Assembly (NCBI GenBank): GCA_033286805.1
Contig: GCA_033286805.1_4727.1
DNA from: a phage
Length of the DNA: 64,000 nt
Strand: one strand, 5' to 3'
Shown here: piece by piece, positions 55,928 through 63,471 of the stretch
How positions within the stretch are numbered: position 1 is the stretch's first letter
Layout of the letters: each line of letters starts with the position of its first letter
Translations under genes and position numbers: made by a program
The notes under the pieces: generated by a model
Seen by the model: the letters and a program-made list of their open reading frames with translations, nothing else
Told to the model about the DNA's origin: nothing
The model's database searches: none

Positions 55928-56614
55928 TTAAGACGTTGCCATCTTATCTTCCAGAGACTTCTTCGGTAAACCATGGATAACTCCTTCCGGGGTTAAGAAC
56001 ACACAGTCTGGATTCTGCGTTCGCGAACGGTCTTCTGGGCTGTTCAACGAGAACAGCAACGCAGAAATACCTTTTGTCCGATTTAACGTTGCGACGATCA
56101 CATCAAGCTGCCGTAGCGCATCCGATACCGTTCGATGAGGAACGATTCGCGACTGTTTGAAGCTGGCTAACCGCCAAGTCTCGAACAAACAACGCAGTTT
56201 AAACACGTCGGACGGAATAGCTGTAGATCCCTGTTCGATAACCTCAACCCGATCAGCTTCAGGATAACCTACAGCAACCGCACTAAAGTGTCTTACCCCA
56301 TTATGAAAATCATTGATAGACGCTTCGGCGTATTTACATACCGTACCAGAAACGACCATCACTTTTGCTAAACCGCGATAATTGATCGTTAACGGAATAC
56401 GAAATACACGTAAAGCATGTTCCGGATTTAATGAGACGTCATTCACTTTCGCAGATACCAGCGCACCTCGTTCATATCGAGCTTTGAACGGCAGCCCATT
56501 ATAAACGGGGTTGATTACAACGCCCCCTGGGGAGGCGTTAGCGTTAAGATGAGTGTTAAGCCAATCGGATACTTCCTGCCTGCTGGTTACGATTAACATA
56601 AAACGGTCCTCCAT
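55928..56614 (-). CDS. hypothetical protein
   Basis: Start moved to ATG 56614 with GAAGGAAAAG SD, avoiding overlap with the methyltransferase gene. Confidence 0.55.
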   Translation of the reverse strand: MEDRFMLIVTSRQEVSDWLNTHLNANASPGGVVINPVYNGLPFKARYERGALVSAKVNDVSLNPEHALRVFRIPLTINYRGLAKVMVVSGTVCKYAEASINDFHNGVRHFSAVAVGYPEADRVEVIEQGSTAIPSDVFKLRCLFETWRLASFKQSRIVPHRTVSDALRQLDVIVATLNRTKGISALLFSLNSPEDRSRTQNPDCVFLTPEGVIHGLPKKSLEDKMATS

Positions 56615-56624
56615 TTCTTTTCCT

Positions 56625-57275
56625 TCATTCATGGCGCATATCTTCCAAATCATCCTTTTGTTTTGTAAATTCTGATTGCTTGCGATAAACCTCCCATGAG
56701 TCGTATATACCGTAAAAGTTCAAATGGCGTGCATTTAAGTTCACAGTAAATTCTTCCACAGAGGCAAAATCCGAACGAAGCATCGAATGGAAGGTGTCAT
56801 CTCCAGTGCAGCCTCCGTATCCTTCACCCTGATAGACCAAAAGCTGGTGAGGTTGGATACGTGCGGCAACCAATGCAGCTTGTGGTTCGTCGTAAGGTGG
56901 CCATGACAGTAGAATAACGTCGTACTGTGAAAGATCGATGTTTGTGTAGTCGGCTTGCTGAATGTCCTCGATAAACGGGTGGGGATGTAATTCCGTATCG
57001 TAAGCGGTAATGTCCTCAACACCAAGTTTACGCAACACATAGGTCAGGTAACCTGTCCCACAACCCAGGTCAGCAACACGTCGCCCGTAACAGATGTTCG
57101 CTAACTGGAGTGCGGTATCCATGGTTAACAACGACCATCCAACGTGCTGGGTATATTCTTCACGGACAATCCATTGTTGATGGTGCGTCATCGGTTCTAA
57201 GATAGCAGCAAGCTGCTGGTACGGCAACGGCATTTTGGTTTCGCCTTGCGTGAGTAATGCGATAACATCGTTCAT
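56625..57275 (-). CDS. SAM-dependent methyltransferase (GxGxG plus PPY motif)
   Basis: VADLGCGTGYLT (SAM motif I) and ILLSWPPY (xPPY-like); ORF-track start 57308 lies in a terminator hairpin loop, ATG 57275 has AAAGGAAA SD. Confidence 0.6.
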   Translation of the reverse strand: MNDVIALLTQGETKMPLPYQQLAAILEPMTHHQQWIVREEYTQHVGWSLLTMDTALQLANICYGRRVADLGCGTGYLTYVLRKLGVEDITAYDTELHPHPFIEDIQQADYTNIDLSQYDVILLSWPPYDEPQAALVAARIQPHQLLVYQGEGYGGCTGDDTFHSMLRSDFASVEEFTVNLNARHLNFYGIYDSWEVYRKQSEFTKQKDDLEDMRHE

Positions 57276-57298
57276 TTTGTTTCCTTTTATCGGCATAA

Positions 57299-57319
57299 GC
57301 CCTCCCATGTCGGGAGGGT
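57299..57319. terminator. hairpin GCCCTCCC-ATGTC-GGGAGGG
   Basis: Left flank CATAA; just past the 57324 gene stop; overlaps the ORF-track start of the methyltransferase. Confidence 0.55.
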
Positions 57320-57323
57320 ACGA

Positions 57324-57752
57324 TTATTCATTTTCAATAACTTTAAGATTCGGTGTACCGAGCGTTTTCTTCACCAACGCCTCAGCGACGCGTTTCTCGA
57401 TGAAATCGGTCGCATTGCTTCCGTCTATCGTACGCATATCACCACGGAAATTGTTGAAGACCATAAACAAGTCACAACCGTCGATAGGTATCGCAAGATC
57501 ATAACTGACTTGTGATGCGGTGAAATGGACACCCACGACAACGGCGGGAACGAATTTAACCGCTGTGTTATCTCCTTCTTCTCCGGTTCCGAACGGAAGC
57601 TCAACACGATCACCGATAGAGAACTGTGAGACATCATTAATCGCGTGAGTTAGTGCGATTCGTTGCATGTCGGCGATCTTTTCCTTATTCGCGTCGCAAG
57701 GTAGGTCCAAGACTTCTTCCAACGTGAAGAATTTACGATCGAACCAGCTCAT
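57324..57752 (-). CDS. hypothetical protein
   Basis: 142-aa ORF starting 2 nt after the GNAT gene stop. Confidence 0.6.
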   Translation of the reverse strand: MSWFDRKFFTLEEVLDLPCDANKEKIADMQRIALTHAINDVSQFSIGDRVELPFGTGEEGDNTAVKFVPAVVVGVHFTASQVSYDLAIPIDGCDLFMVFNNFRGDMRTIDGSNATDFIEKRVAEALVKKTLGTPNLKVIENE

Positions 57753-57753
57753 G

Positions 57754-58287
57754 TTAAGCTCCTTTGTGTTTTACGGACGATGTTAACCAGGACGATCTTA
57801 CCGTGAAACCCTCAGACTCGTAGAACGCCTGGGCTTCAGCGTTATCAGCACGAACATCCAGACCAATAGAATGCCCGCCGCATCGGTAAGCGATGTTGCG
57901 CGCTTCATTCATCAAGGCATGACCGATCCCACGTCCGCGATATTCGGGTTTTACAATAATCGATGTAACGTCATGAATGCCCATATGGCTCTCTGTATTC
58001 ACTTCCAAGAGGCCTACCGGTATCGAAGCGATAGCATCGATCATAACGACCAACATTGCAGTATCTGGTAAACGCTTTTCTAATTCTAAAGCATCGTACT
58101 CGCGTTTTAAATCGGGGATATTCTCAAACATAAACGTGGTAGCCCATGCCTCTGATTCTACATCGTCGAGAATACGGTACAGCTCACGAATCTGTCGTTT
58201 ATGTGGGTAAAGGTGTGGATCGGCAGCCGTTGAGGCGATAACGCAATAGAACTGTCGTTCATTAATAACTACTGTTTTGATGCTCAT
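57754..58287 (-). CDS. GNAT-family N-acetyltransferase
   Basis: Acetyl-CoA motif VKPEYRGRGIGHALM and AQAFYESEGF; GAGGGAA SD; ATGA overlap with the upstream HTH gene. Confidence 0.75.
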   Translation of the reverse strand: MSIKTVVINERQFYCVIASTAADPHLYPHKRQIRELYRILDDVESEAWATTFMFENIPDLKREYDALELEKRLPDTAMLVVMIDAIASIPVGLLEVNTESHMGIHDVTSIIVKPEYRGRGIGHALMNEARNIAYRCGGHSIGLDVRADNAEAQAFYESEGFTVRSSWLTSSVKHKGA

Positions 58288-58790
58288 GCTAAAATTCCCT
58301 CATTACCTAACAGTCGATTACGATGACGTCGGTACATTTGACAAAGTGTTGTGATTTGATAATGTTTGTTGTAACGTACCTCGATACGTTTTTGCACCTC
58401 TTTCCATGGAAGTTTATCGTATTGCCGATAACGATGGATTTCATTTAACATACGAAGACGAGTAGGATCGGTGTTCTTTATCGTCGTGAGCTTCACACGT
58501 TGATATCCACGCTGTAGTCCTGATTCGGAATACGTGACGTCAAACTCATCTTGAATGATGGTAATGATCTCCCGCCACCGACGGTTCTCGCCGTCACGTA
58601 AATGGACAACCCGCGATAAGATATCGTTCCGATTACGATGACTCAGTTTAATGTTAAGCATTGAAGCAATCGCGCTAATTGCTCTCTGACTCCGTCCTAA
58701 CGCTTCACCTATTTCTTTCGATGTCATGACGCCCGCGTTTCGGCGTATGAATGCGATTTCGGTTGTTGTGTATTCTTTACCTGCTGCCAT
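58284..58790 (-). CDS. HTH DNA-binding protein, tandem paralog 1
   Basis: YTTTEIAFIRRNAGVMTSKEIGEALGRSQRAISAIASML helix-turn-helix-like repeat. Confidence 0.6.
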   Translation of the reverse strand: MAAGKEYTTTEIAFIRRNAGVMTSKEIGEALGRSQRAISAIASMLNIKLSHRNRNDILSRVVHLRDGENRRWREIITIIQDEFDVTYSESGLQRGYQRVKLTTIKNTDPTRLRMLNEIHRYRQYDKLPWKEVQKRIEVRYNKHYQITTLCQMYRRHRNRLLGNEGILA

Positions 58791-59254
58791 TTCTTACCAC
58801 GTGTGTTATAATAGTAACGCTGACAAAGATGTGTGTGACGGTACTCCCGTTTGAACTCGACGCTGATAATGCGAGCAACTTCTCTCCAGTTAACTCCTTC
58901 ATGCCGAAGTGCTGTAATACGGTCTGAAATTTTGCACCATTCATCTGGGTCGTATCGTCGTAGCTTGAGTCGTCGTATTACGGAGGCGACACTCGCTCTC
59001 GATCGGCCAAGATGATTTGACAGTTGTTTAACCGAGTATCTGTGGATATTGTCGCGAATATAGGAAATCTCGTTGTTCGTATATGCCTCATTGGTTCTCG
59101 ACGAAGGGAACAGCATATACAACTTATTCTTAATCGCGCTTTCTGTGCGTTGAAATACAATAGCCAGATCACTAACCGGTGGTCTGGGTATCTGATCCGC
59201 GTAACTCTCGAGGCGTGAGAGTTCCTCATCTGTCCAGCGACGGTATTTGCGCAT
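58724..59254 (-). CDS. HTH DNA-binding protein, tandem paralog 2
   Basis: Start moved to ATG 59254 (MRKYRRWTDEELSRL) with AAGGAG SD; two HTH-like repeats. Confidence 0.6.
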   Translation of the reverse strand: MRKYRRWTDEELSRLESYADQIPRPPVSDLAIVFQRTESAIKNKLYMLFPSSRTNEAYTNNEISYIRDNIHRYSVKQLSNHLGRSRASVASVIRRLKLRRYDPDEWCKISDRITALRHEGVNWREVARIISVEFKREYRHTHLCQRYYYNTRGKKWQQVKNTQQPKSHSYAETRAS

Positions 59255-59729
59255 AGGCAACTCCTTTGTTTTTCGTGTAGTAACACCAACGTTGATACAA
59301 CGCATGTTTATTCGTTGTAATCCCAAATTTAACAACAACGTCGTATGTGATAACATTCCAATTTTGGGTAACGTTAAGTCGTTCCGCGATAAACGCGATA
59401 ATCGCTTCCCGTTCTTGCTTGGTGAGCGCACGACGAATTCCATTAAGCCGTATAAACTGACGAACCGAGTCATACGAACGGTTTAAATCGTACGCAATCT
59501 CACGCAGCGATTTTTGTTTGATTACGGACTTGATGTACGCGCGTTCTTCTTCCGTATAAGGTCGATGCTTTTGGCGTTGACGTATTCCCAAACGTCCCAG
59601 ACGCGCGTCGATGCTGGCGCGTGTTCGTCCTGTCCGTTGTGCGATTTCATCAATCGTCATCGATGTGTTTAAGTACAGATGCGTGACGTCTTTCAGCTCG
59701 TCGTCACGCCATGGTTGAGATCGTCCCAT
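59226..59729 (-). CDS. HTH DNA-binding protein, tandem paralog 3
   Basis: WRDDELKDV...MTIDEIAQRTGRTRASIDARLGRLGI plus a second repeat; start/stop overlaps with neighbours. Confidence 0.65.
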   Translation of the reverse strand: MGRSQPWRDDELKDVTHLYLNTSMTIDEIAQRTGRTRASIDARLGRLGIRQRQKHRPYTEEERAYIKSVIKQKSLREIAYDLNRSYDSVRQFIRLNGIRRALTKQEREAIIAFIAERLNVTQNWNVITYDVVVKFGITTNKHALYQRWCYYTKNKGVAYAQIPSLDR

Positions 59730-60207
59730 CTTGTATCCCTCTTTTCTTTCTATGATGCCACCAACGCTGATAGACAGCCTGCTTCGTACGTGTTATACCG
59801 AAATGCGCATTAACCCGTTCAGCAATGTGGTGCCAATCCTGTGTTTCTTCCAACAATGTATCAACGAAGGCTACGAAGATCTTAGTATCAGCCTCGCTTA
59901 ACCGCTTGAAACCATGACGGTGTGCTATCGTTCTAATACTGTTTGGATCCCTGTTTAAATCGCGTGCGAGTTGTTTGTAACTTTTGTGTTTGCAGTGTGC
60001 TCTGATATATTCCAACTCATCGACACTGAAACGTTTATGCGGTTTACGACGTTCAACATTTAAGTATATCAACCTCGATTTAATTGCACCGTACGTTGTT
60101 TCCATGATTTCTGCGATTTCACGGATTTTTAATTTCGGGTGACGATAGTACAATTCCAGCAACTGTTCATCATCCTTACGATTCCATCGTCGTACTGGAG
60201 GTTTCAC
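59704..60207 (-). CDS. HTH DNA-binding protein, tandem paralog 4
   Basis: RRWNRKDDEQLLELY...IREIAEIMETTYGAIKSRL plus a second repeat. Confidence 0.65.
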   Translation of the reverse strand: MKPPVRRWNRKDDEQLLELYYRHPKLKIREIAEIMETTYGAIKSRLIYLNVERRKPHKRFSVDELEYIRAHCKHKSYKQLARDLNRDPNSIRTIAHRHGFKRLSEADTKIFVAFVDTLLEETQDWHHIAERVNAHFGITRTKQAVYQRWWHHRKKRGIQDGTISTMA

Positions 60208-60220
60208 AACGAGATTTCTC

Positions 60221-60688
60221 CTATTCTGCGCGTTTTAATGCTTGAGTGTAGTAGAGGCTATGAACACCGCTTAACGTGTAATGGGTGTTAAATTCGTTAT
60301 TGATGATATTCCGTATTCTCTCCCAGGTGTTATTCTCTTTTCTAAGGGTGTGTATTCGATAATAAATCATCTCTCGACGTTGCGCTTTGCATGCAACAAT
60401 ACCGTAACGGTAGCAGAGTTTAGCGATTGCATCCACGCTACGATTGAACATCACTGCGGCTTCTTTTACGCTATGCGTCTTAAGATAATCAGCTAACATC
60501 ACGCGTTCTTCGAAACAGCAATAGCGGTGACGCGACGTGAGTTTCCAACGCTTGCGATTACGGTTAATTCGACCTTGAACAGAGCCTTCTGTTCGGTCAA
60601 GCCGTGCCGCAATCTCTTGCATCGGGATACCGTTTCGGTACAGAGTAATCAATATCGCGTCTTCTTCGGGTGTCCAGTCCTTGACCAT
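60221..60688 (-). CDS. HTH DNA-binding protein, tandem paralog 5
   Basis: WTPEEDAILITLYRNGIPMQEIAARLDRTEGSVQGRI resembles the GcrA N-terminal / Myb-like HTH. Confidence 0.65.
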   Translation of the reverse strand: MVKDWTPEEDAILITLYRNGIPMQEIAARLDRTEGSVQGRINRNRKRWKLTSRHRYCCFEERVMLADYLKTHSVKEAAVMFNRSVDAIAKLCYRYGIVACKAQRREMIYYRIHTLRKENNTWERIRNIINNEFNTHYTLSGVHSLYYTQALKRAE

Positions 60689-60700
60689 AGTGCCACCCCA

Positions 60701-63364
<2,664 letters not shown>

Positions 63365-63471
63365 GTTGTCGTTTCCTCCATACGAAACCAAAAAATTGTC
63401 AAAATGTACATCAGCATAACGCCCGTGCCCGCCCGCGATGGGAGGGACACAGGCAATACGCTTTTATTTCA

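Follow-up and report, generated by a model that had tools for sequence, protein, structure and literature searches.

The window analysed here, a 64,000-nucleotide stretch of phage DNA (GenBank assembly GCA_033286805.1, contig GCA_033286805.1_4727.1), carries a gene for a predicted S-adenosylmethionine (SAM)-dependent methyltransferase whose motif IV reads Trp-Pro-Pro-Tyr (WPPY). What comparison of sequences allows us to state most firmly is that the gene is functional, that its predicted product, a SAM-dependent enzyme, belongs to a viral family of its own in which WPPY replaces NPPY, and that translation most likely starts at position 57275. With a probability of roughly 0.6, we read it as a stand-alone methyltransferase belonging to a large viral WPPY family, the acceptor of which is likelier to be a cationic or planar group than an amino group of DNA; its target is probably not phage DNA. 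Gene, motifs, leader and hairpin all lie on the minus strand of the window, in whose coordinates they are given; residue numbers are those of the 216-residue protein, and residue counts refer to 198 family domains.

A predicted SAM-binding core with tryptophan in motif IV

The 2.4 kb surrounding the gene share 96% nucleotide identity with Escherichia phage vB_EcoM_Goslar, a 237-kb jumbo phage of the genus Goslarvirus, in which the gene has gp111 as its homologue (93.5% amino acid identity), labelled 'class I SAM-dependent methyltransferase' in RefSeq. Among six Goslar-like sequences its ratio of nonsynonymous to synonymous divergence (dN/dS) is 0.10-0.16, a level of purifying selection which indicates that the gene is functional. 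The coding sequence and the protein elements that carry the assignment are the following.

56625-57275, minus strand: coding sequence of the WPPY methyltransferase (216 residues, TGA stop at 56625-56627; from the list of open reading frames, ORFs)
57042-57077, minus strand: motif I, VADLGCGTGYLT, the SAM-binding glycine loop (residues 67-78; Gly71, Gly73 and Gly75 in 184-191 of 198 domains)
56997-56999, minus strand: Asp93, the ribose-binding acidic residue of motif II, at the end of strand beta2 (Asp in 194 of 198; strand 89-93 in the model)
56892-56903, minus strand: motif IV, Trp125-Pro126-Pro127-Tyr128, right after strand beta4 (Trp in 192, Pro in 194, Pro in 169 and Tyr in 185 of 198)
56796-56828, minus strand: signature loop GEGYGGCTGDD, residues 150-160, after strand beta5 (near-invariant Glu151, Cys156, Asp159 and Asp160)
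56700-56702, minus strand: Asp192 in a GI(H/Y)D motif ahead of the last strand (Asp in 187 of 198)

The original prediction, made from the window sequence, had described a SAM-dependent methyltransferase fold with an atypical motif IV, in which SAM motif I is followed some 50 residues later by ILLSWPPY and Trp replaces the canonical Asp, Asn or Ser before Pro-Pro-Tyr. This description holds, both motifs being found in the sequence. DLGCGTG at residues 69-75 agrees with the class I pattern E/DxGxGxG, and it is the motif I region that generic methyltransferase models match. ILLSWPPY occupies residues 121-128 (56892-56915), with Trp125 lying 54 residues past the first glycine of motif I. Across the family, position 125 is Trp in 192 domains, Gly in four, Cys in one and a gap in one, and never Asp, Asn or Ser. 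Since the residue before Trp125 varies (Cys, Ser, Ala, Val, Ile or Asn), the motif is W-P-P-Y and not a shifted S-x-P-P-Y.

The second hallmark of the family is the signature loop GEGxGGCTGDD, which had no counterpart in the solved structures or curated profiles searched and in which many positions are near-invariant (Gly150 in 196 domains, Glu151 in 196, Gly155 in 189, Cys156 in 189, Thr157 in 180, Asp159 in 166 and Asp160 in 150), with Phe162 close behind it in 184. An AlphaFold2 model built on the family alignment (mean predicted local distance difference test, pLDDT, 91.4; predicted template modelling score, pTM, 0.88) comprises four N-terminal helices, a seven-strand Rossmann-type core and one C-terminal helix, a helical N-terminal stretch some 60 residues long standing ahead of the catalytic domain. 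As modelled, the family is thus shown to have a class I Rossmann fold with complete SAM-binding motifs I-III.

The loss of the polar catalytic residue of motif IV could also mean that the protein is a catalytically dead SAM binder, acting as a sponge for SAM or as a scaffold, for which METTL14 with its inactive, degenerate EPPL motif provides a precedent. We regard this as highly improbable: at a mean family identity of about 25%, roughly a dozen residues outside the SAM site are near-invariant (Trp125, Tyr128, Glu151, Cys156, Thr157, Asp159, Asp160 and Asp192), a pattern of an active site rather than of decay, and purifying selection on the gene is strong.

A large family found almost only in viruses

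A search of 5.8 billion proteins returned 45 relatives, and a profile search of 1.84 billion cluster representatives retrieved 8,480 of them at E<=1e-3, including 2,370 that pass E<=1e-30. The window protein falls into PHROG 19090, annotated as of unknown function and its sole true family match: residues 37-198 align with positions 34-190 of the 191-position profile at E 6.2e-18 and 66 bits. Among GenBank phages, 33 records carry the gene, nearly all of them jumbo phages or haloviruses: Goslar itself, Aeromonas jumbo phages including ZPAH34 and pAEv1810, Salmonella phage SA002, Xanthomonas phage LucasX, 250-320-kb phages of Klebsiella, Serratia, Pseudomonas and Stenotrophomonas, and the haloarchaeal viruses PhiCh1, phiH and HGTV-1. 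Structural matches in BFVD extend the range to Klebsiella phage Miami and several giant viruses of the Klosneuvirinae, and IMG/VR contributes 58 loci, among them one giant-virus genome with an ORF bearing VVWPPY. At the giant-virus locus L079 (1434-2019), the WPPY and GEGxGGCTGDD parts differ in frame or have a stop between them, which points to a pseudogene, a sequencing error or a frameshift.

Among 185,579 species-representative genomes, only eight loci were found, all in metagenome-assembled genomes; one lies in a region resembling a mobile element and two (L015 and L016) come from Obscuribacterales, the domain forming the C-terminal end of an 847-residue protein at the first of these (L015, 4021-6564). 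A literature search for 'WPPY' met the string only in unrelated uses, and papers mentioning Goslar or Chimalliviridae are silent on the methyltransferase gene. The family, which is large and almost exclusively viral, appears to be uncharacterised, the gene itself having already been annotated in generic terms.

In a few proteins the domain is joined to others. In bacterial proteins of about 850 residues, namely that at L015 together with P0058 (871 residues) and P0056 (926 residues), the methyltransferase domain, with WPPY or WPVY, is C-terminal, and in P0058 and P0056 tetratricopeptide repeats (TPR) precede it; the layout is reminiscent of secreted effectors or toxins. The metagenomic protein P0141 (337 residues) carries a NADAR domain (E 5e-22) on the N-terminal side of its WPPY domain, a single case that hints at a link to ADP-ribose or NAD chemistry, and a GNAT domain is joined to a WPPY domain in the 313-residue metagenomic protein P0076, likewise a single case. 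Tandem duplications of the domain also occur, and cluster look-ups gave no informative names for the fusion proteins.

Relation to known methyltransferases

Curated libraries yielded only sub-threshold, generic matches to the SAM-binding loop. The best Pfam match, Methyltransf_23, reached 21.9 bits with a cut-off of 27 and MTS reached 20.2 bits with a cut-off of 23, and matches to NCBIfam models lay far under their cut-offs. Placement in a housekeeping methyltransferase family by a profile search, which the original prediction had named among the outcomes that would speak against it, was not obtained, and the protein fits no curated family.

More distant relationships emerged when the family profile was aligned by hhalign with 12 methyltransferases of E. 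coli MG1655. Probabilities were highest for PrmC/HemK (89.6% over 64 columns), TrmN6 (86.8% over 68) and RsmC (44.9% over 81), the only three of the 12 enzymes that align through motif IV, where all three alignments end. In each, LLSWPPY stands opposite the corresponding segment (IVSNPPY in PrmC, IISNPPY in TrmN6 and IISNPPF in RsmC), with Trp125 facing Asn every time. The alignments with UbiG, TehB and PrmA cover motifs I-II only, and Dam, YhdJ, RsmA, RsmD, TrmA and PrmB gave 0.1-9%. The invariant Cys had also suggested a C5-uracil methylase of the TrmA/RumA m5U type, whose catalytic Cys comes just after strand beta5; this candidate found no support, the probability for TrmA being 4.5%.

These alignments suggest that the family is remotely derived from the NPP[YF] amino-methyltransferases, with the catalytic Asn/Asp replaced. 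It shares with PrmC/HemK, TrmN6/YfiC and RsmC (of the Pfam MTS type) the class I fold, the order of motif I before motif IV and an alignable stretch from residue 66 to 130 running through xPPY with Pro-Pro-Tyr matched. PrmC/HemK resembles it further in being acidic and in having a helical region before the catalytic domain; HemK has an N-terminal helical domain. In contrast with these enzymes, the viral family has an invariant Trp for their Asn, and nothing known corresponds to its C-terminal half, where GEGxGGCTGDD and GI(H/Y)D lie. Mtq2 and the METTL5 / Ta1320 / PH1948 enzymes are similar to it in size (about 200 residues) and in lacking a substrate-binding domain, and a phmmer match to METTL5 was obtained (E 0.002), but they keep Asn or Asp in motif IV. 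Enzymes of the Mtq2/METTL5 type need Trm112 as a partner, whereas no conserved partner gene was seen for the viral family.

Proposed mechanism and substrate

We propose that SAM would be bound as in other class I enzymes and that the nucleophile of the substrate would be held between an aromatic platform formed by Trp125 and Tyr128 and an acidic loop contributing Glu151, Asp159, Asp160 and Asp192. The window protein has an isoelectric point (pI) of 4.67 and a net charge of about -18, the family median pI being 5.35, and its conserved positions include two basic residues as against seven acidic and thirteen aromatic ones. With no Asn/Asp to form the hydrogen bond and with acidic and aromatic residues on the conserved surface, the enzyme probably does not act on an exocyclic amino group of DNA, a cationic or planar acceptor being likelier. 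As the leading single candidate, though one less likely than not, we put forward a side chain or the N-terminus of a protein, for which the acidic and aromatic conserved surface, the HemK-like layout and the TPR fusions would argue; otherwise the substrate would be a small molecule or nucleotide, or RNA.

Several points weigh against the reading of the protein as a stand-alone methyltransferase with a cationic or planar acceptor. Its substrate is one that we infer, for every family member alike, and that the conserved residues lie near the SAM site is a supposition drawn from topology. Similarity to known enzymes stops at motif IV and the C-terminal half lacks a known counterpart, so that the chemistry could differ from simple N-methylation, and the invariant Cys could serve as a nucleophile. 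The NADAR fusion points towards nucleotide or ADP-ribose chemistry rather than proteins, and an acidic pI is compatible with RNA or DNA enzymes that use a partner protein. Finally, the PADLOC models for type II methyltransferases (E 4e-6) and mad2 (E 5e-6) match motifs I-IV of the window protein (residues 55-128), mad2 also matching one family member over 177 residues, and the homologue in PhiCh1 (ORF83; L013, 3899-4474) directly follows the gene for the putative N4-cytosine DNA methylase M.PhiCh1-III and is near that for the putative C5 methylase M.PhiCh1-II.

These last two observations would be accounted for by a DNA methyltransferase of the N6-adenine or N4-cytosine type, through whose action the phage genome would evade restriction, as would the xPPY form of motif IV and the order of motif I before motif IV, which is that of gamma-class DNA N6-adenine methyltransferases such as type II enzymes and mad2 of the MADS system. 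We nevertheless consider such an enzyme very unlikely. The residue that binds the amino group in those enzymes, Asp, Asn or Ser, has given way to Trp in the family, and the 216 residues are filled in the model by the Rossmann core and short helices, with no target-recognition domain; nor is there a conserved partner gene that could supply specificity. None of 39 members matched Pfam N6_Mtase, N6_N4_Mtase, MethyltransfD12, Eco57I or DNA_methylase at E<=0.1, partial matches over motifs I-IV coming only from the PADLOC models, hhalign gave 0.8% for Dam and 0.2% for YhdJ, and the strongly negative net charge is a further difference. Goslar, moreover, replicates within a protein shell that already excludes restriction enzymes. 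The suggestion of a DNA-modifying anti-restriction enzyme, one of the options in the original prediction, the other being a protein or RNA methyltransferase, thus finds no support.

We judge it rather unlikely that the enzyme methylates tRNA or rRNA, whether of the host or of the phage, as it might do in order to adjust translation or shield RNA from host nucleases. Such a role would agree with the nearest structures, many of which are enzymes of tRNA or rRNA, and with the nearest profiles; these neighbours include Trm14, TrmN, Trm5b, TrmN6, RsmC and METTL5-like enzymes, and with the occurrence of the family in viruses of bacteria and archaea and in one of eukaryotes, as fits a universal target such as the translation machinery. 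Genes for RNA repair are found in the neighbourhood of some members (RlaP twice, PNKP once), but these make up two to three of 128 neighbours from 40 locus groups and are not enriched. The protein also lacks an RNA-binding module (THUMP, PUA or TRAM), and its surface is strongly acidic, with just two conserved basic positions.

A small molecule or nucleotide, such as a polyamine-like cationic metabolite, an immune signal or an NAD-derived molecule, is likewise an acceptor that we doubt. The GGCTGDD loop would then bind phosphate or a metal and Trp/Tyr would stack on a base. The minimal size of the protein with no extra domain, its acidic and aromatic conserved core, the NADAR and GNAT fusions and a GNAT gene lying two genes upstream in the window all speak for it. 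However, the matches to UbiG and TehB are limited to motifs I-II, and each fusion is one case. A general association with GNAT was considered and rejected: adjacency is confined to the Goslar group, and the GNAT domain of the fusion is only generically similar, not specifically related, to the GNAT protein of the window.

The start codon and its leader

Three in-frame ATG codons could begin the coding sequence: that of the ORF track at 57308, that of the Goslar annotation at 57296 (223 residues) and one at 57275 (216 residues). The leader region was aligned with three further Goslar-like contigs, in a comparison covering five relatives.

57273-57275, minus strand: most likely start codon, ATG (MNDV...), the sole start in frame across all five relatives
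57282-57286, minus strand: Shine-Dalgarno-like AAGGA, its AGGA ending 6 nt before the ATG at 57275
57294-57296, minus strand: alternative in-frame ATG (MPIKGNKM...), the Goslar RefSeq start (coding sequence of 672 nt), probably not the main start
57306-57308, minus strand: ORF-track ATG, its A and T falling in the hairpin loop and its G opening the 3' arm
57300-57318, minus strand: GC-rich hairpin CCCTCCC-N5-GGGAGGG, with a perfect 7-bp stem and a 5-nt loop (about -14.6 kcal/mol)

Comparison of the relatives supports the ATG at 57275 as the true start, giving a protein of 216 residues. The variable hairpin loop reads GTGTC in relative L003, and the equivalent of the ATG at 57308 is thereby lost. 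Relative L002 lacks 1 nt of the A-run, and neither upstream ATG is in frame with the gene there: the upstream frame becomes ATG CCG ATA AAA GGA ACA AAA TGA, and the sole long ORF is the 216-residue one from the ATG equivalent to that of MNDV. In the same relative, a mini-ORF of seven codons thus runs from the upstream ATG to a TGA that shares bases with the main ATG. AAGGA is invariant among the relatives, only the length of the A-run after it differing, and AGGA or GAGG sites of a similar kind precede neighbouring genes. The GGAGG ahead of the ATG at 57296, by comparison, is spaced from it by only 4 nt and doubles as the 3' arm of the hairpin. Over the 24 nt from hairpin to the ATG at 57275, the five sequences differ by one substitution and one deletion, as against a synonymous divergence of 0.24-0.77 inside the methyltransferase gene; this near-constancy fits a regulatory leader and not coding sequence.

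The original prediction had held that the start of the ORF track was misplaced and that the downstream ATG with AAAGGAAA, at 57275, was the real one. The loop of L003 and the frameshift of L002 bear this out, although the third candidate, the ATG at 57296, had been overlooked. A minor 223-residue isoform may be made from that codon, and RefSeq probably starts Goslar gp111 seven codons too early.

The hairpin that the same prediction had placed at 57299-57319 is real, but it spans 57300-57318, and only the A and T of the ORF-track ATG, which had been described as lying in its loop, do so. It occurs 5 nt past the stop codon of the upstream gene (TAA, 57324-57326) and 24 nt ahead of the ATG at 57275, and its pattern has one exact occurrence in the window, with 0.02 expected from shuffles. 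All five relatives share the stems unchanged, whereas their loop may be GACAT, GGCAT, GTGTC or GTTAT. As the 5' arm holds CCUCC and the 3' arm GGAGG, the hairpin sequesters a Shine-Dalgarno-like sequence. It was also considered as an intrinsic terminator and rejected, there being no T-run and no call in a terminator scan. A second, near-identical hairpin (CCCGCCCGCGATGGGAGGG, one mismatch to the pattern) lies at 63428-63446 and is the only other match in the window.

The intergenic leader as a whole (57276-57323, minus strand) is composed, in order, of the hairpin, TATG, the invariant AAGGA and the ATG. TATG is the core of the late promoters of phiKZ, where transcription starts at its G (PMC4666361). 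Upstream of 63 genes of the window, however, it is not enriched, with 0-3 occurrences per 10-nt bin as against 1.7 expected, so that the TATG after the hairpin is a speculative promoter candidate. The hairpin is non-coding. Together with the invariant leader it would serve regulation or the ending of transcripts, and it may mark the end of a transcript, stabilise it or form part of a promoter.

Gene neighbourhood

The methyltransferase gene sits in a run of same-strand genes, most of them without assigned function.

57754-58287, minus strand: GNAT acetyltransferase gene, two genes upstream
57324-57752, minus strand: gene directly upstream, 142 residues, no assigned function (TAA stop at 57324-57326)
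55928-56599, minus strand: downstream gene, 223 residues, no assigned function

Within this run, the methyltransferase has diverged from Goslar faster than its neighbours (dN 0.036 versus 0.004-0.010; amino acid identity 93.5% versus 97-100%). Across the family, BLAST clustering of 1,317 ORFs from 79 loci showed no conserved neighbour beyond close relatives, and a Pfam scan of 128 neighbours in 40 dereplicated locus groups revealed no enriched domain, the commonest, RlaP, occurring twice. Further upstream (about 58284-61000, minus strand) small paralogous genes, about five in number, stand in a tandem array and show helix-turn-helix or Myb-like features. These belong to PHROG 323, 'transcriptional regulator, D5-like', and equivalent regions are present in L001-L004, L022 and L023, one BLAST cluster of array genes having 30 members from six loci.

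Implications

The family comprises thousands of clusters, almost only from large viruses, among them phages that infect E. coli, Klebsiella, Aeromonas and Salmonella, and has neither a curated family model nor a structure. An invariant Trp in place of the catalytic Asn/Asp, together with a new Cys-containing loop, predicts a chemistry or a choice of substrate unlike that of textbook amino-methyltransferases, and automatic labels such as 'DNA methylase' or 'tRNA methyltransferase' are unfounded for members of the family. Since Goslar is an experimentally tractable phage of E. coli, the question is directly testable.

A bolder view, to which we assign a low likelihood, is that proteins combining WPPY with GEGxGGCTGDD constitute a new catalytic class of viral SAM-dependent enzymes, in which a Trp/Tyr clamp, an acidic loop and an invariant Cys act on a target that NPPY enzymes leave untouched, for instance a polyamine, a conserved protein of the host, or a nucleotide that is derived from NAD or used in host immune signalling. 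This class would be common to jumbo phages, haloarchaeal viruses and possibly giant viruses, and, if it exists, would represent a general tool for host takeover or counter-defence.

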